Virus genome (UHGV): UHGV-0172637
DNA from: a virus
DNA length: 43,019 nt
Strand: one strand, 5' to 3'
Position numbers and translations under genes: made by a program. Within the stretch, counting starts at the first letter, position 1; every line of letters begins with the position of its first letter. The notes below the pieces were generated by a model, which worked only from the letters and a program-made list of their open reading frames with translations, was not told where the DNA came from and made no database searches. Shown in pieces: positions 201 to 42,969 of this stretch.

Positions 201-210
201 CTGGGATTTT

Positions 211-258
211 TGGTCGGCACGAGAGGATTTGAACCTCCGACCCCCGACACCCCATGAC
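211..258 (-). tRNA. Partial tRNA-Pro gene, 3' ~48 nt only (anticodon-arm to CCA end); prophage att core
   Basis: Minus-strand reads ...GTCATGGGGTGTCGGGGGTCGGAGGTTCAAATCCTCTCGTGCCGACCA, matching T-arm/acceptor 3' half of enterobacterial tRNA-Pro as I recall it; sequence 5' of this does not continue as a tRNA (no complementary acceptor-stem 5' strand). Confidence 0.7.
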
Positions 259-451
259 ACCGCTTATAAAACGCTGAGAGCCGCGCAATTGCTGGTATTA
301 GGTACTATTCGCATGTATAAACAAACAGTGCTTTTTTAGCAAAATCTGCTCTATATACATCAATGACTTAGGTGGTGGTTTCTCCCCATGTTTGAATAGT
401 TTCGAAAAGTTGTGTGACATAATGCCAGAACAAACTACTAGAGGCTGGATA

Positions 452-1303
452 ATGAAAAAAAGAACTAAAAAAGGCAGTAACATCCGTTTTCGAGAACACA
501 CTGAGGTCGAGAGGTCTTACATTAGTCTTTATAAGATATTCTGCCGCGCTTGTGAAATTTCTGCAGTCATATCACTGAATCAAAGCGGAATTAAGACCGA
601 CGGCAGGGGGATACGGGCTGCAAATATTTTCACTCGTCAAGTGTTGACTGCGCATAGTCTTAAGAAACTACTGCCAGTACTGCGAAACGGAGATAATCCC
701 GATGATACAGTTTGGGATGTAACCACTATCGCACTTGTGTCCAGAAGTGTGATGGAAAATTTTCAGGCGCTTTTTTATTACGGCACGGAAACGGTCTCGG
801 AAGCGGAGGCTGACTTTCGTTTTCGAATTTTCCAAAAAGACAGAAATGTTAAATGGCGTGATATCAGACTGAAGGCTGGTGAATCTGAAGAATCACTGGA
901 GGAGTTTTTCACTGGCATACCAAAGCAGCAGGAGGAGATAGTGAACCATGAATTCTATAGTTCACTGTCTAAAGAACAAAAGAATAGTCTCAAAAACAGG
1001 GCCGAAATGTATTATACCAAAGCTGAGTTTGAAGCTCGCTGCCCGCGGTTAGCTGATATTGCACTACATCACCAATTACTATCAAATCTAGCCCATCCAT
1101 TGCCACTGGCTATCCATAGGATTGATGAATTTAGCGGTCATGGTTCACCCAGTGAAGCAGACATCTGCTTAGTCATAATATCCCTGAAGGTTGCTACAGA
1201 CTGCCTAATTGCGTCAGTTGAGGGAATGGGCGAAAAATTTGCCGATAGTATCGGTATACTTTATCGGTCAATGATTGAAGAACTCTCCAATTACTCACTT
1301 TGA
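452..1303 (+). CDS. Hypothetical protein, att-proximal accessory gene (283 aa from the RBS-supported ATG)
   Basis: ORF 392-1303 in track; internal ATG at 452 preceded by AGAGG RBS; no motif I recognise; lies between att core and the convergent integrase gene. Confidence 0.5.
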   Translation: MKKRTKKGSNIRFREHTEVERSYISLYKIFCRACEISAVISLNQSGIKTDGRGIRAANIFTRQVLTAHSLKKLLPVLRNGDNPDDTVWDVTTIALVSRSVMENFQALFYYGTETVSEAEADFRFRIFQKDRNVKWRDIRLKAGESEESLEEFFTGIPKQQEEIVNHEFYSSLSKEQKNSLKNRAEMYYTKAEFEARCPRLADIALHHQLLSNLAHPLPLAIHRIDEFSGHGSPSEADICLVIISLKVATDCLIASVEGMGEKFADSIGILYRSMIEELSNYSL

Positions 1304-1396: not shown

Positions 1397-2575
1397 TTAG
1401 CTGGCTTTTATTTCTCCATGTGGAACGACAACCCAGTCGATATGGTTTTGCGTGTAAATTTTAGTTGATTTCGCATCGCTATGTGCCATTCGCCCTTGTG
1501 GATCGATACCCTGCTGATCGAAAAGATGCGCAGCCAGCGCTCTGATTTCGTGAAAGGTTGGTCTTTCGTCCATCGGTAGATTGTCGCATAAACCTAGCTT
1601 GTCACGCGTAGCTGAAAACGACCGACTCAAATAATCCGGCGCAACTTGAGTGGGATGTGAAACCTCTTTGCTGCGTTTAACCTGCCGTTCCGGGAGCCTG
1701 TGAACTATAAATGGACTGGCCACATTATCTCGGCTATCGTCAATTATTCGTTTCAACTCTTCCCCAATAGGTATTGCAACATGTGATGCCTCTTTTTTTT
1801 GCACCTTCTGCCTGTGGATATAGAGAGTCCCATATATGCCATTTTCTGGATGTTCTAACCAAACGCATCCGCATACTCCGTCTTTGGGTTCTTTGATGGA
1901 GTAGCGGATCCTTGATACCTCCAGTCGCGCGTGTGTTGTCTGCAATGCCAAATCCATCGCGCTCCGTAACCATGGTTCAGCTGCACGCCTGATAGCTTTA
2001 AAGTTATCAAGTGAGAGGCGCTGGCGTTTCTTCTCTTCTGTCCTACGCATTTTTTTACGGGTTGCCGGGTTATCGAACATTAGCGATTCATCGACCGCAT
2101 ACGAGAATAGTTTTTTAAGAAAGCTGACTTTCCTGTTTTGTACGTTTGCTGAAGCTTCGGCATGGTAGTGGTTTATATAGGCATTCACATGCTCCAGCTC
2201 AATATCGCAAGCTGGTGTGCTGATGAAGAATTCTTTCACTCTCAGAGCATCGTTGTTCCAATCGTCGAGTGTATTCTGTGAGGGGCGCTCATTCTCAATC
2301 GCCCGCTCCATAATATGATCTACGTGTTCAGCAAATGGTTTTGCTTCCCCCGTTACACCGCCAGATTCACGGACAAGTATTTCTACTGATGGTACATTTG
2401 CAGGCCTCATTCTGAGGTTGTATTCACGGGCTATAGCGATCGCTACAGCCCTGTCTTTACCGATATTCTTTTTTTTCCCAGTTATAAGCGTAAATTTATA
2501 AACGCCGCGATCTTTATCGAATATTAGATATTCGGGTAGATGGCGGTATTCTCTTTTTCTTGGCCTGGCTGCCAT
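1397..2575 (-). CDS. int: Tyrosine recombinase, lambda-type integrase
   Basis: 392 aa; C-terminal catalytic signature HEIRALAAHL...GRMAHSDAKSTKIY (His-x-x-Arg ... His ... Tyr), N-terminal arm-binding-like region; adjacent to att and xis. Confidence 0.92.
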   Translation of the reverse strand: MAARPRKREYRHLPEYLIFDKDRGVYKFTLITGKKKNIGKDRAVAIAIAREYNLRMRPANVPSVEILVRESGGVTGEAKPFAEHVDHIMERAIENERPSQNTLDDWNNDALRVKEFFISTPACDIELEHVNAYINHYHAEASANVQNRKVSFLKKLFSYAVDESLMFDNPATRKKMRRTEEKKRQRLSLDNFKAIRRAAEPWLRSAMDLALQTTHARLEVSRIRYSIKEPKDGVCGCVWLEHPENGIYGTLYIHRQKVQKKEASHVAIPIGEELKRIIDDSRDNVASPFIVHRLPERQVKRSKEVSHPTQVAPDYLSRSFSATRDKLGLCDNLPMDERPTFHEIRALAAHLFDQQGIDPQGRMAHSDAKSTKIYTQNHIDWVVVPHGEIKAS

Positions 2576-6085: not shown

Positions 6086-6732
6086 TTATAAATCCATTAT
6101 CACTTGTCTTACTAATCCGACCAAACGGCAGTTGCCGTTTACCTCGAGCATCCTGTAGTTGGGATTGAGAGGTACAAGGTATTTAAGCGGACCATCAATG
6201 ACGAATTTTTTTATAGTGGCTTCGTCACTTCCCATTAGCTGAGCAATGACAATTTTACCATTTGCTTGGCTGGCATCTCCAAAGTCAGGTTCTACGACGA
6301 CGAGAGAGCCCTCCGGGATGCTTGGTGCGCCATTTGGGTTAGTCATTGAGTCACCGCGGACTATTAGTGCAAAAGCGCTCTCTGAAACAGCTGCTGAAGT
6401 GTAAACCCAGTCTTGAATGTCTCGTTCCGTTATCGCACCACTATTGGCAGTCCATTCCCCGGCTTGCACCCACGTTAAAACGGGAACTGATCTAATTCCG
6501 AATCTCTGCTCTGGGTTCATTGTTGGCGGTTGTTGTTTCCCGTCATCCTTACCCTCCAGCAACCACTGCGGTGTCTTTTCAAGAGCAGCAGCAAGCGCCT
6601 GAAGGTTCTCACCGCCAGGTTTATAGTCACCAGATTCCCAGCCGGTGATCGTGACGCGGTTTACCCCGACAAGCTTTGCCAGGACAGATTGCGTCATCTT
6701 CAGCTCTTTTCGTCTGCTTCGGATTCGATCAT
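6086..6732 (-). CDS. Prophage repressor, cI/LexA-like (HTH + S24 peptidase domain)
   Basis: N-terminal XRE-type HTH (MTQSVLAKLVGVNRVTITGWESG), C-terminal S24 autopeptidase signature (RGDSM ... K); start taken at ATG 6732 rather than track start 6820. Confidence 0.9.
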
Positions 6733-6797
6733 TCATTTTCATGTAGGCAATCCTACCATTTTCTAATGTAGGAGTGCTTGACCATTTTATGTAAGAT
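6732..6797 (+). promoter_or_regulatory. Rightward early promoter/operator region (OR/pR-like) with three operator-like sites
   Basis: Sites TGTAGGCAATCCTACC (6732-6747), TGTAGGAGTGCTTGAC (6757-6772), TGTAAGATATCCTACT (6780-6795); TTGACC (6768-6773) - 18 nt - TACTAT (6792-6797) upstream of cro-like gene. Confidence 0.6.
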
Positions 6798-6841
6798 ATC
6801 CTACTATTTATGCACTGCATGACCTAACTCCAGAGGGAAAA

Positions 6842-8833: not shown

Positions 8834-9711
8834 CGTTAAACAAATATTGCCAGGCGCTGGTGGCACTACGTAGCCAACCAGCCCACGAATTGAAAGAAGT
8901 TGGCGATCAGTGGCGGACACCGGATCTGCTTTTTTGGGGTATCAACGCGCTATTTGGTCCATTAGTTCTGGACTTGTTTGCTGACGACGACAACGCGAAG
9001 TGCCCGGCATGGTACACCGCCGAAGATAACGCGCTGACACAGAACTGGTCTGAACGTCTGGATGAACTGGGCGGCGCGGCTTTTGCCAATCCTCCATATA
9101 GCCGCTCCCAGTATCACGACAAGCAGGCGATCACGGGTATGACACACATCATGAATCACACCATGGACATGCGTGAAAGAGGTGGTCGCTATATTTACCT
9201 GGTGAAGTCTGCCACAAGTGAAACATGGTGGCCGGAAGATGCCGATCACATCATGTTTATTCGTGGTCGTATTGGGTTCGATCTGCCTGTGTGGTTTGTA
9301 CCTGCTGACGAAAAACAGAAACCCACCAGCGCGTTTTTTGCCGGTGCCATAGCTGTATTCGATAAGTCGTGGCGGGGTGAGCGGTTCAGCTATATCAACC
9401 GCACAGAACTGGAGGAAAAAGGGCGGGCATTTATGGCTTTGGCTCAATTCGCCGTTGGTAAAGAGCAAACAATTGCAATGCAGGCAGCCAGGGAACCAGC
9501 AGCAACACCGGAAACTGAGTCACGAATCTGGCCTCTCGAGGTTGGTCTGGTGTTTAACCAGGTGGAAGGCGTTGATGTATTGAGCGAGGCCCAGCAGAAC
9601 AAACTGAAAGCCAACATCAATCAACTCTGGCTGGAACGAACGGCCACCAGCGAAATTATCACAATTGCGCGTGGTCTTGTTGGCAGCATGCAGGGGGTAA
9701 CCCATGCGTGA
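8830..9711 (+). CDS. Phage DNA N6-adenine methyltransferase (Dam-like) with C-terminal extension
   Basis: NPPY catalytic motif (FANPPYSRS); position in replication/nin region typical of phage orphan MTases. Confidence 0.75.
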   Translation: MTLNKYCQALVALRSQPAHELKEVGDQWRTPDLLFWGINALFGPLVLDLFADDDNAKCPAWYTAEDNALTQNWSERLDELGGAAFANPPYSRSQYHDKQAITGMTHIMNHTMDMRERGGRYIYLVKSATSETWWPEDADHIMFIRGRIGFDLPVWFVPADEKQKPTSAFFAGAIAVFDKSWRGERFSYINRTELEEKGRAFMALAQFAVGKEQTIAMQAAREPAATPETESRIWPLEVGLVFNQVEGVDVLSEAQQNKLKANINQLWLERTATSEIITIARGLVGSMQGVTHA

Positions 9712-11638
9712 GATTATCGTTGATAACTTTGCTGGTGGCGGTGGTGCATCAACGGGTATTGAACTGGCGATCGGACGCAGCGTGGATATTGCGATCAACC
9801 ACGACGAAAACGCCATTGCGATGCACAAGACGAACCACCCTGACACACTGCATTACTGTGAATCCGTATTTGACGTGGATCCGGTAGCCGCCACCGGCGG
9901 CAATCCTGTTGGCCTGGCATGGTTTAGCCCAGACTGCCGACACTTCTCAAAGGCCAAAGGCGCAAAGCCTGTGAAAAAAGAGATACGCGGTCTGGCCTGG
10001 ATCGTTCTGCGTTGGGCACTGGCGAAGCGACCGCGCGTGATGATGCTGGAGAACGTGGAAGAGTTTAAAACGTGGGGACCGCTGCTGGCCGATGAAATGC
10101 GTCCAGACCCTGCCCGCACTGGCGAAACATTCAATGCTTTTGTCGGCATGCTTTCCACTGGCATTCCTGCCGATCACCCGGCACTGGCGGAGGTCTGCGA
10201 ATTTCTTGCTATTGATCCTGGCAGCACGCAGGCCAAACAGCTGGTGGAAGGGCTTGGATATGATGTTGATTATCGCGAACTGCGCGCGTGTGATTACGGC
10301 GCGCCGACGATCCGCAAACGCTTCTTCATGGTTATGCGCTGCGATGGTTGCCCTATTCAGTGGCCTGTTGTAACCCATGGGGATCCCAAGTCACTGGAGG
10401 TGCAGAGCGGCAGGCTGATGCCATGGCGTACCGCTGCGGAATGTATCGACTGGAATGTTCCGGCTCTGTCCATCTTCGACCGCAAAAAACCGCTGGCGGA
10501 GAACACTCTGAAGCGGATCGCACGCGGCATACAGCGCTTTGTTATCGAAAGTGCGTCGCCGTTTATCGTGAAGTGCAACCACACGAGCTCAAAAAATGCG
10601 TATGACGCTTTTCGCGGACAGTCACTGAATGAGCCATTACAGACCATTACTAAAAAACTCGGCTACGCGTTAGCCGTTCCACACCTTACAAAATTCCGCA
10701 CTGGCGCAACCGGGCAGCCCGTTACCGAACCTGTTCCGACAGTAACCGCTGGCACGTCAAAACGCCCGGGCGGGAACGGGCATGCTCTCGGGATTGTTGA
10801 GGCTGCATTGACACCATTCCTGGCGGGTAATGGTGGTAGTGAATACCAGGCTAAACCGCGCCCGCTGAATAAACCTGCTCATACCATTCTGAAGCAATCC
10901 CGAGCCTGTCTTGTTGCGCCAGTGATAGCCCGCCAGTTTGGGGCCAGCGTCGGCCACCGTGCAGACGAACCGAGCGCAACCATCACCGCTGGTGGTGGAG
11001 GTAAATCTCAACTGGTAACGCCTACGCTGATTCAGATGGGTTATGGCGAACGACCTGGACAAGAACCGCGTGTGCTGCGACTGGATAACCCGCTGGGGAC
11101 CGTTACTGCAGGCGGAAATAAATTTGCGACGGTGAGCGCGTTCCTGGCGAAACACTACGGCGGTAACTATACGGGGCCGGGTGTCAGTATGGATGAACCC
11201 GCGCATTCAGTGACCACTGTCGACCATCATGCGGTAGTTGCCTCTCATCTGGTGAAACTGCGTGGAACATGCCGCGATGGGCAACGCCTTGATGTGCCAA
11301 TGCCAACAATCACTGCTGGTGGCCAACACGTGGGTGAGGTACGCACATTTCTCGAGACGTATTGCGGGGAAAGTGACGATGAATGGCTGGTAACGATCGA
11401 TGGGGTTAAATACCAGATCGTTGATATCGGAATGCGCATGTTGCAGCCGCATGAACTCTACAAAGCGCAGGGCTTCCCGGATGGTTACGTTATTGATCAG
11501 GACTACCGTGGAAATCGCTATGCAAAAGATAAGCAGGTAGCCCGCTGCGGTAATGCGGTACCACCACCATTCGCCAGGGCGCTGGTTGAGGCAAATCTTC
11601 CGGAACTGTGTGCAGTGCAACAGCAGGAGGTGGCATGA
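9704..11638 (+). CDS. DNA cytosine-5 methyltransferase, large form with repeated target-recognition-like segments
   Basis: Motif I FAGGGGAS, Cys motif SPDCRHFS, ENV motif MLENVEEF, RKRFFMV, C-terminal RCGNAV; five repeats of a P-x-P-T-[VI]-T-A-G-G-like segment in the variable region. Confidence 0.75.
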   Translation: MREIIVDNFAGGGGASTGIELAIGRSVDIAINHDENAIAMHKTNHPDTLHYCESVFDVDPVAATGGNPVGLAWFSPDCRHFSKAKGAKPVKKEIRGLAWIVLRWALAKRPRVMMLENVEEFKTWGPLLADEMRPDPARTGETFNAFVGMLSTGIPADHPALAEVCEFLAIDPGSTQAKQLVEGLGYDVDYRELRACDYGAPTIRKRFFMVMRCDGCPIQWPVVTHGDPKSLEVQSGRLMPWRTAAECIDWNVPALSIFDRKKPLAENTLKRIARGIQRFVIESASPFIVKCNHTSSKNAYDAFRGQSLNEPLQTITKKLGYALAVPHLTKFRTGATGQPVTEPVPTVTAGTSKRPGGNGHALGIVEAALTPFLAGNGGSEYQAKPRPLNKPAHTILKQSRACLVAPVIARQFGASVGHRADEPSATITAGGGGKSQLVTPTLIQMGYGERPGQEPRVLRLDNPLGTVTAGGNKFATVSAFLAKHYGGNYTGPGVSMDEPAHSVTTVDHHAVVASHLVKLRGTCRDGQRLDVPMPTITAGGQHVGEVRTFLETYCGESDDEWLVTIDGVKYQIVDIGMRMLQPHELYKAQGFPDGYVIDQDYRGNRYAKDKQVARCGNAVPPPFARALVEANLPELCAVQQQEVA

Positions 11639-15093: not shown

Positions 15094-16146
15094 ATGAAAA
15101 ATACTGTAAAAATAAACAGTGTTGAGTTAATCAACGCTGACAGCCTGCATTACGTCGCCACCCTCCCGGATAACTCTATTGATCTGATAGTTACGGATCC
15201 GCCTTACTTCAAAGTGAAGCCCAACGGCTGGGACAACCAATGGAAGGGGGACGAGGACTACTTACGCTGGCTTGATAGCTGTCTGGCTGAGTATGCTCGC
15301 GTTCTTAAACCTGCTGACAGCATTTACCTGTTTTGTGGTCACCGACTGGCCTCAAATATAGAGATTATGATGCGTGCCCGGTTCAACGTTTTGAATCACA
15401 TCATTTGGGCAAAACCATCGGGTCGCTGGAATGGATGTAACAAAGAAAGCCTGCGTGCGTACTTTCCATCTACGGAACGGATTTTGTTTGCTGAGCTCTA
15501 TCTTGGGCCGTACACAGGTAAAGAGGATGTTTACGAAAGGAAAAGCACAGAGCTAAAGCAGCACATTATGACGCCGCTGATTGATTACTTCCGTAATGCC
15601 CGTGAATCACTGGGTGTCAGCTCGAAAGAAATAGCTGAGGCAACCGGAAAGAAAAACATGGCGTCACACTGGTTCGGTGCAAGCCAATGGCAACTACCAA
15701 ATGAAGTGGACTATAGAAAATTGCAGGAACTGTTCACTCGGATCGCTATCGATAAGCACATTCAGCAGAAGCTTGAACATCCTCACCACCAGCTGATAGC
15801 TACCTATCAGTCATTAAACCGCAAGTATTCAGAATTGCTGGAGGAATACAAAACCCTCCGGCGCTGCTTTTCTGTTTCCGCTCTTGTTCCGTATACCGAC
15901 GTATGGACGCATAAACCTGTTCAGTTTTATCCAGGCAAACATCCATGCGAAAAACCTGCCGACATGCTGAAGCAGATCATTAGCGCCAGCAGCAGGCCGG
16001 GGGATATTGTTGCCGATTTCTTTATGGGCTCTGGTTCAACTGTGAAAGCAGCAATAGAACTTGGCCGTCGGGCGATCGGCGTAGAACTGGAGGAAGACAG
16101 GTTTATACAGACCACCGAAGAGGTGGAAAAACTGAAAAAATCATAA
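15094..16146 (+). CDS. DNA methyltransferase, beta-class (N6-adenine or N4-cytosine)
   Basis: DPPY motif near N-terminus (LIVTDPPYF) and SAM-binding FFMGSGST near C-terminus (beta-class motif order); third MTase in the prophage. Confidence 0.7.
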   Translation: MKNTVKINSVELINADSLHYVATLPDNSIDLIVTDPPYFKVKPNGWDNQWKGDEDYLRWLDSCLAEYARVLKPADSIYLFCGHRLASNIEIMMRARFNVLNHIIWAKPSGRWNGCNKESLRAYFPSTERILFAELYLGPYTGKEDVYERKSTELKQHIMTPLIDYFRNARESLGVSSKEIAEATGKKNMASHWFGASQWQLPNEVDYRKLQELFTRIAIDKHIQQKLEHPHHQLIATYQSLNRKYSELLEEYKTLRRCFSVSALVPYTDVWTHKPVQFYPGKHPCEKPADMLKQIISASSRPGDIVADFFMGSGSTVKAAIELGRRAIGVELEEDRFIQTTEEVEKLKKS

Positions 16147-35313: not shown

Positions 35314-38300
35314 ATGGCTAAAGCAACCCTTATCAAAGGCCGCAAGGGCGGCAGTTCCAGTTCCCGAACCCCAACCGAACAGCCAGATGATCTGCAATCT
35401 GTAGCGAAGGCTAAAATTCTCGTTGCGCTTGGTGAAGGGGAGTTTGCAGGGAAATTAACCGGAAAAAATATCTATCTGGACGGCACGGCGTTGGAAAACC
35501 CCGACGGCTCCCAAAACTTTAGCGGCGTGACGTGGGAGTTTCGCGCGGGAACGCAGGCACAAAATTACATTCAGGGCATTCCCGGTACCGAAAACGAAAT
35601 CAATGTTGGAACTGAAGTATCAAGCGCTACTGCCTGGACGCGCACCTTCACCAACACCCAACTATCAGCCGTTCGCCTGCGACTGAAATGGCCTTCACTG
35701 TTTAAGCAAGAGGACAACGGCGATCTGGTAGGGTATTCCATCAATTATGCGATAGACCTGCAGACTGATGGTGGGACCTGGCAAACCGTTCTTAATACCA
35801 GCGTAACCGGCAAAACGACGTCTGGTTATGAGCGCAGCCACCGTATTGATTTACCGCAGGCTGGCAGCACCTGGACAATCCGACTGCGTAAGATTACCGC
35901 TGACGCAAACAGCGCCAAGATCGGCGACACGATGACGCTGCAAAGCTTCACGGAAGTGATTGATGCCAAGCTGCGCTATCCGAACACCGCGCTGCTGTAC
36001 ATCGAATTCGACTCGAGTCAGTTTAATGGTTCAATACCCCAGATCTCCTGTGAGCCTCGCGGGCGCGTGATCCGTGTTCCTGATAATTACGACCCTGAAA
36101 CGAGGGCTTACAGCGGTACATGGCAGGGCGCGTTTAAGTGGGCCTGGACTGATAACCCGGCGTGGATATTTTACGATCTGGTGATTACCGATCGCTTTGG
36201 TCTGGGTAATCGCCTGACTGCAGCCAACATTGATAAATGGACGTTGTACCAGGTTGCCCAGTATTGCGATCAGCCGGTACCGGATGGAAAAGGTGGAAGC
36301 GGGACAGAACCACGCTATACCTGTAACGTCTATGTTCAGGAGAGGAATGACGCTTACACTGTGCTGCGTGACTTTGCGGCTATATTCCGGGGTATGACGT
36401 ACTGGGGCGGCGATCAGATTGTGGCCCTGGCTGACATGCCGAGAGATGTGGATTACGCTTACACTCGCGCTAACGTTATCGACGGACGCTTTACCTATTC
36501 CAGCAGTACAACAAAAACGCGCTATACAACAGCGCTGGTTTCCTGGTCTGATCCGGGTAACGCCTATGCGGATGCGATGGAGCCAGTGTTTGAGCAGCCT
36601 CTGGTGGCGCGGTACGGATTTAATCAGCTGGAAATGACAGCCATCGGCTGTACCAGGCAGTCAGAAGCTAACCGAAAGGGGCGCTGGGGCATTCTCACCA
36701 ACAACAAGGATCGCGTTGTTTCTTTTGATGTCGGGCTGGACGGAAACATTCCGCAGCCGGGCTACATCATCGCCGTGGCAGACGAGCTGCTTTCCGGAAA
36801 GGTTATGGGTGGCCGCATCAGCGCCGTTAACGGTCGCGTGATTAAACTTGACCGAGTGGCGGATGCAGTAGCAGGTGATCGCCTTATTCTCAACCTTCCC
36901 TCCGGTGCGTCACAGAGCAGGACCATTCAGGCCGTGAACGGGGAATCAGTCACAGTCACCACTGCGTACAGTGAGACGCCGCAGGCCGAAGCTGTTTGGG
37001 TGGTTGAATCGGACGAGCTTTACGCGCAGCAGTATCGTGTTGTCAGCGTCTCCGATAATAATGATGGTACTTTCTCTATTACCGGGGCATGGCACGATCC
37101 GGATAAATATGCCCGTATCGATACCGGAGCCATCATTGACCAGCGGCCAGTGAGTGTGATCCCGCCGGGTAACCAGTCGCCGCCAGCCAACATTGTGATC
37201 AGTTCATTTTCAGTGGTTCAGCAAAATATCAGCGTTGAGACTATGCGGGTGAGCTGGGACCAGGCGCAGAACTCCATCGCCTACGAGGCACAGTGGCGCC
37301 GCAATGATGGTAACTGGGTAAACGTGCCGCGCAGCTCCACCAACTCATTTGATGTATCGGGTATTTATGCAGGGCGCTACCTCGTGCGTGTGCGTGCCAT
37401 TAATGCCGCTGAAATATCCTCTGGCTGGGGCTACTCCGAAGAGAAAACGCTGACGGGTAAGGTGGGAAATCCGCCGAAACCTGTCGGCTTTGCGACAACA
37501 CCGATTAACTGGGGCATTCGTCTGAACTGGGGATTCCCGGCTAACACCGGGGATACACTGAAAACGGAAATTCAGTACACCGCGAACAGTGATTTCTCAA
37601 ATCCTCTTTTGCTGTCGGATGTGCCTTATCCTTCTGCTGAATACACTCAACTGGGATTAAAAGCGGGGCAGGAATTCTGGTACCGTGCGCAGCTGGTAGA
37701 CAGAACGGGTAATGAGTCAGGCTGGACTGACTGGGTTCGTGGTGAATCTAATGCGAATGCTGACGACTACCTGGGCGATATTGCTGATGACTTCCTGACT
37801 TCTGCCGACGGTAACCGCCTGACAAGCGATATTGATACCAACCTCGAAGCCGCATTGCAGAATGCGCTGGCAAACCATGCAACCGCGGAACACCAGTGGG
37901 CGCAGTACGGCGAAGTACGCGCGGATATTCTGGTAATTAAAACGACGGTCGCCAGTGTGGATAAGGCGATGGCTGAGCTGTCTACGCAGGTACAGGCACA
38001 GATTGAAGATGTGACAGCTTCACTCGAGGACAAACTGACCGCTACTGTCGATGCTTCGGGGGCTACAGCCATTCATACCCTGAAAGCCGGAGTGCGCATC
38101 AACGGTATTTTTTACAATGCCGGGATGTCGATTGCGGTGCTGGCCGAATCAGGTAAGCCGGTAGTAACCCGTGTCGGGTTTAACGCCAACCAGTTCGTCC
38201 TGATGAGTGGCAGCGGTGATACGCAGTATTCTCCTTTTGCTGTTATCAATGGTCAGGTATTTATTAGCGATGCGTTTATTCAGGATGGCAGCATTACCAA

Positions 38301-38517
38301 TGCCAAAATTGGTAATTTTATCCAGTCGAATAACTTCGTTGCGGGTTCAGCAGGCTGGCGCATTGATAAAGATGGAAACGCTGAATTACATGGCAAACTT
38401 TACGCTGACAGTGGCCAGTTTGCATTTAATGGCACCAATAACACTGTCGTCATCAACGGGAATGGGCTGACGGTCAATTTGTCCGGTGGTGGTAGGGTTG
38501 TAGTCGGGAGGTGGTGA
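35314..38517 (+). CDS. J: Central tail fiber / host specificity protein J
   Basis: 1067 aa; size, position after I and fibronectin-III-like central region consistent with lambda gpJ family. Confidence 0.85.
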   Translation: MAKATLIKGRKGGSSSSRTPTEQPDDLQSVAKAKILVALGEGEFAGKLTGKNIYLDGTALENPDGSQNFSGVTWEFRAGTQAQNYIQGIPGTENEINVGTEVSSATAWTRTFTNTQLSAVRLRLKWPSLFKQEDNGDLVGYSINYAIDLQTDGGTWQTVLNTSVTGKTTSGYERSHRIDLPQAGSTWTIRLRKITADANSAKIGDTMTLQSFTEVIDAKLRYPNTALLYIEFDSSQFNGSIPQISCEPRGRVIRVPDNYDPETRAYSGTWQGAFKWAWTDNPAWIFYDLVITDRFGLGNRLTAANIDKWTLYQVAQYCDQPVPDGKGGSGTEPRYTCNVYVQERNDAYTVLRDFAAIFRGMTYWGGDQIVALADMPRDVDYAYTRANVIDGRFTYSSSTTKTRYTTALVSWSDPGNAYADAMEPVFEQPLVARYGFNQLEMTAIGCTRQSEANRKGRWGILTNNKDRVVSFDVGLDGNIPQPGYIIAVADELLSGKVMGGRISAVNGRVIKLDRVADAVAGDRLILNLPSGASQSRTIQAVNGESVTVTTAYSETPQAEAVWVVESDELYAQQYRVVSVSDNNDGTFSITGAWHDPDKYARIDTGAIIDQRPVSVIPPGNQSPPANIVISSFSVVQQNISVETMRVSWDQAQNSIAYEAQWRRNDGNWVNVPRSSTNSFDVSGIYAGRYLVRVRAINAAEISSGWGYSEEKTLTGKVGNPPKPVGFATTPINWGIRLNWGFPANTGDTLKTEIQYTANSDFSNPLLLSDVPYPSAEYTQLGLKAGQEFWYRAQLVDRTGNESGWTDWVRGESNANADDYLGDIADDFLTSADGNRLTSDIDTNLEAALQNALANHATAEHQWAQYGEVRADILVIKTTVASVDKAMAELSTQVQAQIEDVTASLEDKLTATVDASGATAIHTLKAGVRINGIFYNAGMSIAVLAESGKPVVTRVGFNANQFVLMSGSGDTQYSPFAVINGQVFISDAFIQDGSITNAKIGNFIQSNNFVAGSAGWRIDKDGNAELHGKLYADSGQFAFNGTNNTVVINGNGLTVNLSGGGRVVVGRW

Positions 38518-39472: not shown

Positions 39473-40717
39473 ATGTCAGCAGGAACGTTAACCCTTAACA
39501 ATAACTCAGCCTCGGTTGCCGGAACTGACACCACTTTCACCACTGAGTTAGCTGCAGGTGATTTTATTGTGGTTGTCGTGGGTGGTGTGCCTTACACACT
39601 TCCCGTACTGGAAGTTAACAGCAATACACGGCTGACGCTGGTCAGTAATTACACCGGACCGCGAGCGACCGGGGCTGCCTGGTCTGCCGTTCCCCGCGTG
39701 GCGCTGAATATGGTTACCGCGGCGCTGGTGGCCCAGAGTGCTGAGGCGCTTCGGGGTCTGAACTACGACAAACAGAACTGGCAGCGGGTATTCAGTGGTA
39801 CCGGAACTATCACCGTCAGGTTGCCTGACGGGACAACATTCAGCGGCCCTGCGTGGAACAGTATTGTTCAGACGCTTGCAGGCAAGGCTGACCTGGTCAG
39901 CGGCGTGGTGTCAAAAATGCAGGGTGGGACAGGGTTATCCAGTCCCTTTGGCGCCGGGGCCGGTTCTTTCTGTGAGGGGAATGATGTCCGCCTTAACACT
40001 ATCGGCGGCAAATCCGGAGGCCAGATAACCAGCCCGTTTGGCAAGGTCAACGCATTGCCGGGGAGCTTTGACTCCCTCTATGCCGGAAACCGCAACTACG
40101 GTCTCTACCAGGAACAGATGAATGTACTCGGTGCAGGTTATCTGTATCCGCACATGAGTTTCAAGATGTACTGGCCAGGTCATTACGGCGGGGTGTTTAC
40201 ATGGTCTGCATGGGCAAATGACATGAATCCGGAGTATGTTCTCTCCTGGACAACGGAGGTGGGAACCACGCCGCACATGTGGCGGTTTAATGGCACTAAT
40301 GGTAACGCCACAGCTACCGGAAACTGGGTTAACGGCGGCTCGACTGTCAAAATTAAGGAAAAAGTCGAAGACATCCAGAATCCGCGCGAAACGATGCGGA
40401 TAATCCGCGCATGCACCTGGCGACTGAAAACGAAAAATGCTGACGGACGTTTCGGCATCGGTGTTCTGGCTGAAGGGCTATATGAAGCGTACCCGGAGGC
40501 GAAAGTCACAGCCGGTGATATCGAACTACGGGACGGGACTGTTGTTAAGGATGCCTTATCTGTACAGGCTGGCGATTCCGGCGTACTGGCCGCTGTTCAC
40601 CACGCAACCATTATTTCTCTGATGGATGAAAACGAAGCACAGCAGAAAGAAATCAATCAACTGAAAGCAGACATGGAGGCGCTGAAGAAAATTGTTGAAC
40701 AACTCGCCGCCAGATAA
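39473..40717 (+). CDS. Side tail fiber protein with C-terminal intramolecular chaperone-like domain
   Basis: N-terminus MSAGTLTLNNNSASVAGTDTTFTTELAAGDF typical of enterobacterial prophage tail fibers; C-terminal segment ending in coiled coil QQKEINQLKADMEALKKIVEQLAAR. Confidence 0.7.
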   Translation: MSAGTLTLNNNSASVAGTDTTFTTELAAGDFIVVVVGGVPYTLPVLEVNSNTRLTLVSNYTGPRATGAAWSAVPRVALNMVTAALVAQSAEALRGLNYDKQNWQRVFSGTGTITVRLPDGTTFSGPAWNSIVQTLAGKADLVSGVVSKMQGGTGLSSPFGAGAGSFCEGNDVRLNTIGGKSGGQITSPFGKVNALPGSFDSLYAGNRNYGLYQEQMNVLGAGYLYPHMSFKMYWPGHYGGVFTWSAWANDMNPEYVLSWTTEVGTTPHMWRFNGTNGNATATGNWVNGGSTVKIKEKVEDIQNPRETMRIIRACTWRLKTKNADGRFGIGVLAEGLYEAYPEAKVTAGDIELRDGTVVKDALSVQAGDSGVLAAVHHATIISLMDENEAQQKEINQLKADMEALKKIVEQLAAR

Positions 40718-41165: not shown

Positions 41166-41894
41166 CTAATGTTTGTCCGATGATGTGAGTTGCTGCAAAC
41201 ATATATGTTCAGGATGCGGCCTGGATGCTATTTTTTTCCCTGAAGCGGAAAACATTACTACTGTACCTTTAACCCTGGTTTTAACATTCTCGAAATGCTC
41301 TGAAAGTATTTGTTTTAACCCTTCTTTGGAATCTTCGGTGTTTGAAAAGATGCCTTTCTGATTGTATATGCTCATCAGTTTTTTACCGAAGGTATTATGC
41401 ACAACGCCATCACCAACAATTGTGGCGCCATACAGAGTACCATCGTCAGTTAAGGCCTGCGCCGCATTGCGTATTACACAGGTTTTTGTCGATATATTTC
41501 CAGGCAGGCAGTGAAGAAGGTAAAACATTGAAATGGAATCAAATTGACCATGCAATGCTGCGGGATAAGGTTCAAAAACATCATGGCAAATTTTATGTTG
41601 AATTTTTGACTTTCCAGCCCTTGTTGATGCAGCGTTCAGGCTAGCTTCGTTCAAATCCATTAGAGATTTCAAACCACTTTCAGGTACGTGAGTAAGGTAA
41701 AACCCAGTTCCAACACCAATATCCAGATGGTTGTTACCTAAATGTTCCAGAAAGTGTGGAAGAAGGTATTCCTTTGTAGGGCATCCCCATGCAAGTCGAT
41801 TTGATACACCCAAAACCCACCAGTCATAAAGTTTTAGTGTGAATGGTGTGTAAACTTTAGCCCCATCATCTGTGTTTTTTTTCATTAATTTCAC
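41166..41894 (-). CDS. Class I SAM-dependent methyltransferase (small-molecule/protein type, not an obvious DNA MTase)
   Basis: Motif I LDIGVGTGFY; 242 aa; AT-rich 5' half. Confidence 0.6.
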   Translation of the reverse strand: MKLMKKNTDDGAKVYTPFTLKLYDWWVLGVSNRLAWGCPTKEYLLPHFLEHLGNNHLDIGVGTGFYLTHVPESGLKSLMDLNEASLNAASTRAGKSKIQHKICHDVFEPYPAALHGQFDSISMFYLLHCLPGNISTKTCVIRNAAQALTDDGTLYGATIVGDGVVHNTFGKKLMSIYNQKGIFSNTEDSKEGLKQILSEHFENVKTRVKGTVVMFSASGKKIASRPHPEHICLQQLTSSDKH

Positions 41895-41985
41895 CGTGTT
41901 ATAGTTTTGGTCATGAATTAAATCAATAATGGCGATGAATTACAAGGGGTTAAATGATGCCACGACGTAGCGATATTGAAATGGC

Positions 41986-42300
41986 TTGGCATGCTTCGAC
42001 ATGCGGGCATCGCGTTCACATTTCGGGGAAGGGATACTCCAGGGTGCGCTGCTTGTGGTAGATGCATCACTTTCTGCCTGCGATGGCTCACTGCTGATAT
42101 GTGCAATCGACGGGGAGTTCAGGATCAAACGATATCGAACACATCCTCAACCCCACCTGATTAATCTGGAGAGCGGGAGAAGGGAGGTGCTACCAGTAGA
42201 TGATGACGGTTACGGTTCTGCACCCGCTATATTCGGGGTGATTACTTACATCATTAATGATGCCAGGAACGCGGAGTTTGATGATTGTCCGGTGATGTAA
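41986..42300 (+). CDS. UmuD-prime-like S24 peptidase-fold protein lacking the N-terminal arm
   Basis: 104 aa; aligns to UmuD C-terminal domain (LLVVDASLSACDGSLLICAIDGEFRIKRY...IFGVITYII); upstream frame does not encode a UmuD N-terminus. Confidence 0.55.
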   Translation: MACFDMRASRSHFGEGILQGALLVVDASLSACDGSLLICAIDGEFRIKRYRTHPQPHLINLESGRREVLPVDDDGYGSAPAIFGVITYIINDARNAEFDDCPVM

Positions 42301-42969
42301 TCATATTGGCGTTATTAGTTCGGCCCCCTGATTTTTCACATTCCCAACGGCACGCGTTACGGCGTGCCATATAAATTTATCAGCCGGCACAACACCGTCG
42401 GCTGCAATTTCCGCTGCTTCTTTCCCTCCAACATCCTGCCTCATCCATTCGCGCGCGGCTTCCGGTAGCAGTATCAGCGGTCGTCTGTCGTGAATATCAA
42501 CCAGTCCTTTGTCAGCTGCAGCTGTAACTATCAGGAAACCTTCTGCTTCATCTCCACGTTCAAATGGTGTGCTGCCAATCGCCGCCATAAATATCGGCTG
42601 ACCATCGGCCCGATGAATGAAGTAAGGCTGCTTCGTGTCACCTTCCTTTTTCCATTCGTACCATCCATCAGCAAAGCAAATTGCACGACCGTGCTGCCAG
42701 AGTGGTTTAAACATTCTGCTGGTGGCCGCAGTTTCAGATCGAGCATTAATTAGCGGTGGCTTATCCCACCATCCAGGGGCATATCCCCAAATGACAGGGT
42801 CAAGGTGCAGTTGTTCATCACGTTCGCTCAGAAGCAAAACTTTTGTTCCTGGCGCTACGTTGAATCTTCCGATGGGTTCTGGATCGTATGGAATGTCGCG
42901 TTCTGATTCATCAGCGAGCAGGGCAAGATAATCTTCACGCGTCATTGACTGTGCAAAGCGTCCACACAT
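42301..42969 (-). CDS. SOS response-associated peptidase (SRAP/YedK family)
   Basis: 222 aa beginning MCGRF (catalytic Cys2), conserved SRAP signature throughout. Confidence 0.85.
   Translation of the reverse strand: MCGRFAQSMTREDYLALLADESERDIPYDPEPIGRFNVAPGTKVLLLSERDEQLHLDPVIWGYAPGWWDKPPLINARSETAATSRMFKPLWQHGRAICFADGWYEWKKEGDTKQPYFIHRADGQPIFMAAIGSTPFERGDEAEGFLIVTAAADKGLVDIHDRRPLILLPEAAREWMRQDVGGKEAAEIAADGVVPADKFIWHAVTRAVGNVKNQGAELITPI

Follow-up and report, generated by a model that had tools for sequence, protein, structure and literature searches.

A ybcY-type methyltransferase cassette in an enterobacterial lambdoid prophage and its relation to fungal pyrone O-methyltransferases

The virus genome UHGV-0172637 (43,019 nucleotides, analyzed over its whole length and hereafter called the window) is a lambdoid prophage that carries a gene for a class I S-adenosylmethionine (SAM)-dependent methyltransferase on the minus strand, near its tail fiber end. 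Annotations everywhere already name it ‘class I SAM-dependent methyltransferase’, and it is the orthologue of ybcY of Escherichia coli K-12. The link of this family to fungal pyrone O-methyltransferases is a useful lead at the level of annotation and no new kind of system. We consider it probable that the gene is a moron, expressed in the lysogen and encoding a small-molecule O-methyltransferase, which resides on a mobile ybcY cassette and has acquired a C-terminal tail while keeping its core intact.

The methyltransferase gene, its tail and its cassette

The features of the gene and of the cassette are the following.

41166..41885, minus strand: methyltransferase coding sequence, 239-amino acid (aa) allele, with start ATG at 41885..41883 and stop TAG at 41168..41166; residues 1-218 are the conserved enzyme (open reading frame (ORF) list, phrog_2132, Pfam)
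41697..41726, minus strand: SAM-binding motif I, LDIGVGTGFY, residues 57-66 counted from the GTG; D55, G57, G59 and G61 in ATG numbering
41231..41237, minus strand: homopolymer with a +1 insertion, A7 on the coding strand, which abolishes the normal stop (alignments with E. coli E10, K-12 ybcY, L088 and L089)
41169..41231, minus strand: 21-codon frameshift tail IASRPHPEHICLQQLTSSDKH, a translated spacer upstream of the dinI-like remnant that runs up to the TAG at 41168..41166; missing from homologues
41215..41999, minus strand: mobile AT-rich cassette of 785 bp (comprising the gene with ~14 bp beyond its normal stop and ~105 bp of upstream DNA), with about 91-92% nucleotide identity to E. coli prophages and phages and a GC content of 40.1%
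41891..41945, minus strand: conserved upstream region with the by-eye candidate promoters TTGTAA-17-TTTAAT (41945..41917) and TTGATT-17-TATAAC (41926..41898) and a GGTGA ribosome-binding site (41895..41891)

The ORF list contains a 242-aa frame from a GTG at 41166..41894 (minus strand), and this ORF is real: it matches Pfam Methyltransf_12 with 37 bits (cut-off 30), Methyltransf_11 also above its cut-off and, far beyond chance, phrog_2132 (‘unknown function’) with an E-value of 5.1e-144, residues 4-221 covering profile positions 1-218 of 218. The length of 242 aa given in the initial annotation is thus correct for the ORF but less likely for the protein. The GTG at 41894 is part of the Shine-Dalgarno-like GGTGA (41895..41891), five bases before an ATG at 41885, the family alignments begin at this ATG, the PHROG match begins only at residue 4, and the gene call made independently on an almost identical metagenome contig (L085) is 239 aa long. 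The ATG at 41885 is therefore the more likely start codon, giving 239 aa. The gene indeed follows the tail fiber, since the 414-aa tail fiber gene at 39473..40717 precedes it. Its 5′ half is AT-rich as annotated (39.5% GC), but this composition is not limited to that half: the 3′ half has 40.9% GC, compared to 50.1% for the whole window and 54% for the tail fiber gene.

The C-terminal tail is the product of a frameshift. The plus-strand T run at 41231-41237 counts seven T in the window versus six in the relatives E. coli E10 and K-12 ybcY. Relatives end with ...TCA GGG AAA AAA TAG (SGKK-stop), while the window reads ...AAA AAA ATA GCA... onward for 21 extra codons. The closest relatives with the same downstream DNA (L088 and L089 from IMG/VR; 94-95% protein identity) keep the shorter run and the normal stop and, judged from these alignments, the insertion is therefore derived within the lineage of the window prophage. 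The A7 allele recurs in two metagenome contigs (L085, L086) and at one IMG/VR locus (L087), so it is not a one-off sequencing error. Database protein P0012 has a different C-terminal extension starting at the same lysine run, in agreement with the lysine-encoding A run being an indel hotspot. In the AlphaFold2 (AF2) model of the 239-aa allele, the predicted local distance difference test (pLDDT) score is about 40 for residues 221-239 and above 90 for the core, with the fold unchanged. The tail is thus predicted to be disordered and the catalytic core to be unaffected, so the frameshift looks harmless. The annotated overlap with a presumed former regulatory region of dinI stands insofar as the tail overlies the DNA just upstream of a dinI-like ORF (40898..~41143); no LexA box was found between this remnant and the methyltransferase gene.

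Two further observations concern this junction. In alleles that keep the normal stop, this TAG and the dinI-like ORF share one frame and are separated by 38 stop-free codons (41166-41232, minus strand; also in L087 and L089), so that read-through would fuse both proteins. Such an open stretch is compatible with chance (about 0.16), and L088 has stops there. On the plus strand, a terminator-like hairpin followed by the T7 run (41206-41237) coincides precisely with the point where the methyltransferase gene ends (3′); terminator-like sites in the region are as frequent as expected by chance (2 versus 2.2), and half of the hairpin stem lies outside the conserved cassette.

The distribution among related prophages and phages is broad. 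The 785-bp cassette is present in 3824 of the 5426 complete E. coli genomes (~70%), with up to four copies, in 14 records of a plasmid collection and in the virion genomes of phages 2G7b, ev243, PhiR26_1, Turner, Kati and others, where it is located between the tail fiber genes and an alpha/beta-hydrolase, ompT and int block. Among the 80 best IMG/VR loci surveyed for their flanks, 77 have fragments of TfaD-like and TfaX-like tail fiber assembly genes on the sides of the cassette. The arrangement of the window, with a humD fragment, the methyltransferase gene and a dinI fragment, is common only to L087-L089 within this set, L089 retaining the TfaX fragment. We found no direct or inverted (transposon-like) repeats around the cassette, and it therefore probably spread by recombination between phages and not by transposition. 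The gene has some marks of a moron, namely a GC content of 40% in a window of 50% and different flanks in different phages. Its ratio of nonsynonymous to synonymous substitution rates (dN/dS) against the E. coli copies is 0.15-0.18, so that the protein is under purifying selection. Cassette copies of 91-93% identity also occur on short contigs binned to ‘Bacillus sp.’ and ‘Planococcaceae’ metagenome-assembled genomes (L006, L016), most likely as mis-binned enterobacterial or phage DNA. In a 265-aa E. coli variant (P0001), an internal stretch of about 47 residues (AALHGQFDSI...LYGAT) is duplicated in tandem.

The K-12 counterpart is YbcY (b0562) of the cryptic prophage DLP12, which together with its intact orthologues (WP_000239881, 222 aa; phage 2G7b gp26; phrog_2132) belongs to the same cassette, with about 91-92% nucleotide and 90-91% protein identity to the window gene. 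As in the window, it lies antisense to the tail genes, near the tail fiber and attachment (att) end of lambdoid prophages. The flanks differ, with fragments of tfaD and tfaX instead of dinI and humD, and the A7 frameshift tail belongs to the window copy. In K-12 itself, ybcY is a pseudogene located between tfaD and tfaX-appY-ompT, with two bases missing around the start codon according to the alignment. YmfD of the e14 prophage, considered as a possible K-12 homologue, is another uncharacterized class I methyltransferase of about 220 aa encoded beside an integrase, but it belongs to a separate family without detectable sequence similarity (BLASTP E-value 2.0), and ybcY is the true orthologue.

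The motif TTGATT-17-TATAA(C/T) is kept in divergent cassettes that include the upstream region, even where the upstream homology breaks (L091). With these candidates, which were read by eye, the gene probably has a promoter of its own that is active in the lysogen.

Enzyme class and family

The window protein is, by its sequence and its model, an intact class I (Rossmann-fold) SAM-dependent methyltransferase. The canonical motif I of the initial annotation is confirmed, and all of 31 sequences from bacteria and fungi have its D55, G57, G59 and G61. In the family alignment, D77 at the end of beta-2 is invariant and D102 in motif III nearly so; their positions match Asp77 and Asp102 of CysG (PMC11408123), which is an analogy of numbering only and not of superposed structures. 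The AF2 core model is confident (pLDDT 90.7) and has a class I fold of seven strands, with a lid made of two N-terminal helices. The DNA-methylase motif IV, (D/N/S)PP(Y/F/W) or PCQ, is absent from this single-domain enzyme of 218 aa, as had been annotated, and no DNA methyltransferases are among its Pfam, NCBIfam and fold-search matches. The fold search retrieved RebM, DhpI, Coq5, GSMT, PmtA, PfPMT and JHAMT, with a few tRNA enzymes lower, and the best relatives of solved structure by sequence are JHAMT (E-value 3e-6) and UbiG (E-value 8e-4). The latter two are of the same class I fold, and the group that they methylate is a carboxyl or hydroxyl of hydrophobic isoprenoid substrates, but only the Rossmann core aligns (about residues 41-160, ~22% identity), and the lid and C-terminal regions differ. 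The structure-based assignment thus settles the class, while neither the fold nor the solved relatives fix the substrate.

Several more specific identities were tried and rejected. NCBIfam gave only sub-threshold matches to CpaM and RquA, and PADLOC only a 16-bit match to mad2, which assigns the gene to no defense system. A His-His-Asp metal site of the BelI/CysG type, suggested by the similar numbering of H125, C126 and D185, would be speculative.

A search with the family profile retrieved 1749 clusters (built at 50% identity) at an E-value of at most 1e-3 and 413 at 1e-30 or below. Members from Gammaproteobacteria (Enterobacterales, Pseudomonas, Xanthomonadales, Pasteurellaceae) have 50-60% identity, and many members from Ascomycota have about 40-47% identity. 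Chromosomal relatives lie in genus-specific contexts, for example beside dcp and ydfG in Enterobacter and Citrobacter, and are 50-75% identical. Longer family members have only N-terminal extensions without a Pfam domain and were rejected as domain fusions, with a eukaryotic RCC1 fusion as the sole exception. No conserved neighbor gene was found around family members in 80 genomic loci, which suggests that the methyltransferase is a stand-alone modifying or detoxifying enzyme rather than a pathway step.

The fungal cluster P0324 holds UniProt entry Q0C9L6, ‘Methyltransferase ctvB’ of Aspergillus terreus. The window protein has 40% identity to CtvB over 214 of 219 residues (E-value 3e-49), compared to 3e-6 for JHAMT, its best sequence match in the PDB. 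When CtvB was in turn searched against PHROGs, only phrog_2132 matched (2.4e-46, full length). CtvB, AurB, AstB and DovB O-methylate the alpha-pyrone hydroxyl group of polyene polyketides, with direct proof for DovB (PMC12312803; PMC7077241). In total, 27 residues are invariant across the bacterial and fungal members, and all of them are present in the window protein: Y12, L17, Y20, D21, V24, W33, C35, D55, G57, V58, G59, G61, D77, S117, S119, H125, L127, K134, G149, G153, T155, N164, N175, F180, N182, D185 and G207. Those shared end to end with the CtvB type include Y12, Y20, D21, W33, C35, H125, N164, N175, F180, N182 and D185. The likeness to CtvB (citreoviridin), AurB, AstB and DovB thus comprises the N-terminal lid (YDxWV...AWxC), motif I, D77, the histidine of LHCLPG, the C-terminal N/F/N/D residues and a size of about 220-230 aa. 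The fungal genes differ in being part of polyketide clusters with defined polyene-pyrone substrates, whereas the bacterial and phage genes stand alone with no polyketide synthase (PKS) nearby.

The proteins of ascomycetes (Fusarium, Aspergillus, Trichoderma, lichen fungi) and those of Pseudomonas and Xanthomonadales match the same fungal query at about 50% identity (P0279-P0382 versus P0304-P0331). Such an identity between bacterium and fungus is unusually high and suggests inter-kingdom transfer.

Prophage limits, host and flanking genes

The remaining features of the prophage are the following.

204..258: attL, 55 bp identical to the 3′ part of tRNA-Pro(GGG); its partner attR lies at L085:7675-7729, about 220-280 nt past the right end of the window
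1397..2575, minus strand: integrase
6086..6820, minus strand: CI-like repressor
35314..38517: tail gene J homologue
39473..40717: tail fiber gene, 414 aa
40898..41143, minus strand: dinI-like remnant downstream of the methyltransferase gene (Pfam DinI, 2.5e-18), with a frame beginning KFIELVY... and AAG in place of the expected start ATG
41986..42300, plus strand: 5′-truncated humD/umuD′-like fragment (NCBIfam HumD, 5.2e-46, model positions 27-129 only), with in-frame stops just upstream
42301..42969, minus strand: intact SRAP/YedK-like gene, the last before attR (Pfam SRAP, 3e-51; NCBIfam PRK09951, 1e-139), followed in L085 by tRNA-Pro and yejM

The two 55-bp repeats are the att sites. The window from position 259 to its end, including the methyltransferase gene, therefore lies inside the prophage, which is about 43.1 kb long and of which the window misses only the last ~0.28 kb. 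Beyond the SRAP gene, L085 continues with tRNA-Pro(GGG), yejM, yejL, yejK, rplY and radD. The claim of cargo at the right, tail fiber end is thus supported by the att repeats that bracket the gene and by the same cassette in sequenced virion genomes (2G7b, ev243, PhiR26_1). A housekeeping host family with a conserved chromosomal context outside the prophage, which would have spoken against it, is not what we found: the chromosomal relatives are only 50-75% identical, and the window copy is a phage cassette. The prophage also encodes a DUF6453 gene. The host core genes that flank it in L085 are only 83.5% identical to E. coli, which places the host, on sequence grounds, in an enterobacterium other than Escherichia. 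The best protein match to the window methyltransferase is from Citrobacter freundii (93%).

Both flanking genes of the cassette are damaged. Related DinI-like proteins presumably begin with MFVELVY, so that an ATG is expected at the AAG of the dinI-like ORF. L087-L089 have this AAG too, and L088 in addition carries a frameshift, while the C-terminus of L087 is changed; the ORF is therefore probably a decaying remnant, a pseudogene. The humD/umuD′-like ORF has lost its first ~26 codons, with the break near the upstream end of the cassette homology, and this gene was apparently destroyed by the arrival of the cassette. The idea that the cassette splits a dinI gene was rejected, since translation of the ‘DinI fragment’ annotated by the Prokaryotic Genome Annotation Pipeline (PGAP) upstream of the E. 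coli cassette contains no clear DinI-like sequence. A scan of the region of 38.5-43 kb with Rfam gave zero matches.

Elsewhere in the prophage, an ORF of 303 aa (392-1303, plus strand), which starts with TTG and matches no Pfam family, lies between attL and the integrase; the opposite end of the prophage may thus have a cargo gene as well. The early region contains a DNA methyltransferase gene for a 644-aa protein (9704-11638, plus strand), the first ~120 residues of which form a C5 DNA_methylase domain, and an N6_N4_Mtase gene (15094-16146, plus strand). The start of the latter ORF is overlapped by a near-consensus LexA/SOS box, TACTGTAAAAATAAACAGTG (15102-15121; 8/8 core, 16/20 overall), the strongest in the window.

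Proposed function and alternative explanations

We infer expression in the lysogen, the O-methylation chemistry, the substrate class and the benefit, and propose the following course. The ybcY cassette, at the tail fiber and att end of lambdoid prophages, would be transcribed in the lysogen from its own promoter, as is probable for a gene antisense to the late operon. Its product would be a stand-alone cytoplasmic class I O-methyltransferase from the family of CtvB, AurB, AstB and DovB, which methylate alpha-pyrone polyketides at their acidic enolic 4-hydroxyl. By analogy, SAM would be held by motif I (D55-G61), D77 and D102, and the aromatic N-terminal lid (Y12, Y20, D21, W33, C35) would shut over a hydrophobic small substrate. 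An acidic hydroxyl would then receive the methyl group, and the likely base is H125 of LHCLPG, which is invariant. The lysogen could plausibly benefit if a metabolite or toxin resembling a hydroxypyrone, a hydroxyquinolone or a phenol were inactivated or modified. In the lineage of the window, a +1 slip in the A run at the stop codon added the 21-aa tail, predicted to be disordered, and left the catalytic core untouched.

A number of points weigh against this proposal. The only characterized members of the family are the fungal CtvB, AurB, AstB and DovB, and we found no paper on the function of ybcY. An identity of 40% to CtvB settles neither substrate nor regiochemistry. CtvB acts within a PKS cluster, but the surroundings of the 80 bacterial loci showed neither a PKS nor any other conserved partner, and the neighbors of the gene in the window are phage genes and gene fragments without a polyketide cluster. 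A consensus promoter scan upstream of the gene called no promoter. The gene is also dispensable, given that it is a pseudogene in K-12 and shortened in many database entries.

In a different reading, the methyltransferase is a decaying, functionless remnant and the frameshifted copy is becoming a pseudogene like K-12 ybcY amid the fragments of dinI and humD. The two broken flanking genes, the stop codon lost via a homopolymer slip and the many truncated or fused database variants agree with such decay, but all family-invariant residues are retained, the dN/dS is 0.15-0.18, the slip adds only a disordered tail to an unchanged core model, and the allele is found unchanged in at least three other assemblies. 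We regard decay as unlikely. The initial annotation had left a small molecule, a protein or RNA as substrates. We favor the first, because the sole characterized relatives, at 40% identity, are small-molecule (alpha-pyrone) O-methyltransferases. Methylation of a macromolecule (tRNA, rRNA or protein), which might alter translation or shield a host target from a toxin, appears slightly less probable still than decay: the matches to such enzymes are no better than those to dozens of small-molecule enzymes and none is specific, zero NCBIfam RNA methyltransferase models matched, and the 218 aa have no RNA-binding or substrate-recognition extension.

An enzyme of the PmtA, UbiG, UbiE or RquA kind, which would remodel the envelope or the respiratory quinones of the lysogen, might seem attractive because ubiquitous substrates would suit a stand-alone gene. 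PmtA (8ys9) also has the best Foldseek template modeling (TM) score normalized to target length (0.71), UbiG, Coq5 and JHAMT belong to the top matches by sequence and by fold, and RquA matches weakly. The scores are, however, marginal (PmtA 8ys9, E-value 0.069 and 15.6 bits with the family profile; RquA, 16.8 bits versus a cut-off of 175), and CtvB is vastly closer. Methylated derivatives of phosphatidylethanolamine (PE) are no normal constituents of the membrane in E. coli (PMC8590670), yet the cassette resides in 70% of the complete E. coli genomes. We consider a lipid or quinone substrate very doubtful. The specific PmtA/monomethyl-PE candidate was rejected, given its marginal sequence support and generic fold similarity, and the ‘endogenous’ E. 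coli route runs via LplT/Aas and not via a methyltransferase (PMC8590670). A DNA methyltransferase that guards the phage from restriction is effectively excluded. Orphan DNA methylases are frequent in phages, and some phage records name the gene only ‘methyltransferase’, but the protein has no DPPY/NPPY or PCQ motif and no target-recognition domain, there are no such enzymes among its fold neighbors, and the early region of the prophage already encodes DNA methylases of the C5 and N6/N4 types as separate genes.

Going beyond the proposed small-molecule O-methyltransferase, the ybcY family may be a chemical-defense moron, whose O-methylation inactivates, or alters the signaling of, hydroxypyrone-, hydroxyquinolone- or hydroxycoumarin-type molecules from competing bacteria, fungi or plants. 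We put this forward as a speculative extension that is more likely wrong than right by a wide measure. If true, lysogeny would confer resistance to a small-molecule toxin, and the near-50% identity between fungal and Pseudomonas proteins would stem from an ecological substrate common to both or from transfer between kingdoms.

The window gene itself is an ordinary moron with a harmless-looking frameshift. Its relatives provide the first function-level lead for a very common uncharacterized cargo gene of E. coli prophages and for the K-12 pseudogene ybcY. As the bacterial and phage counterpart of the fungal pyrone O-methyltransferases, the family suggests concrete candidate substrates. Should the enzyme prove to detoxify or edit some small molecule, metabolite modification would join the traits that temperate phages bring to enterobacteria.

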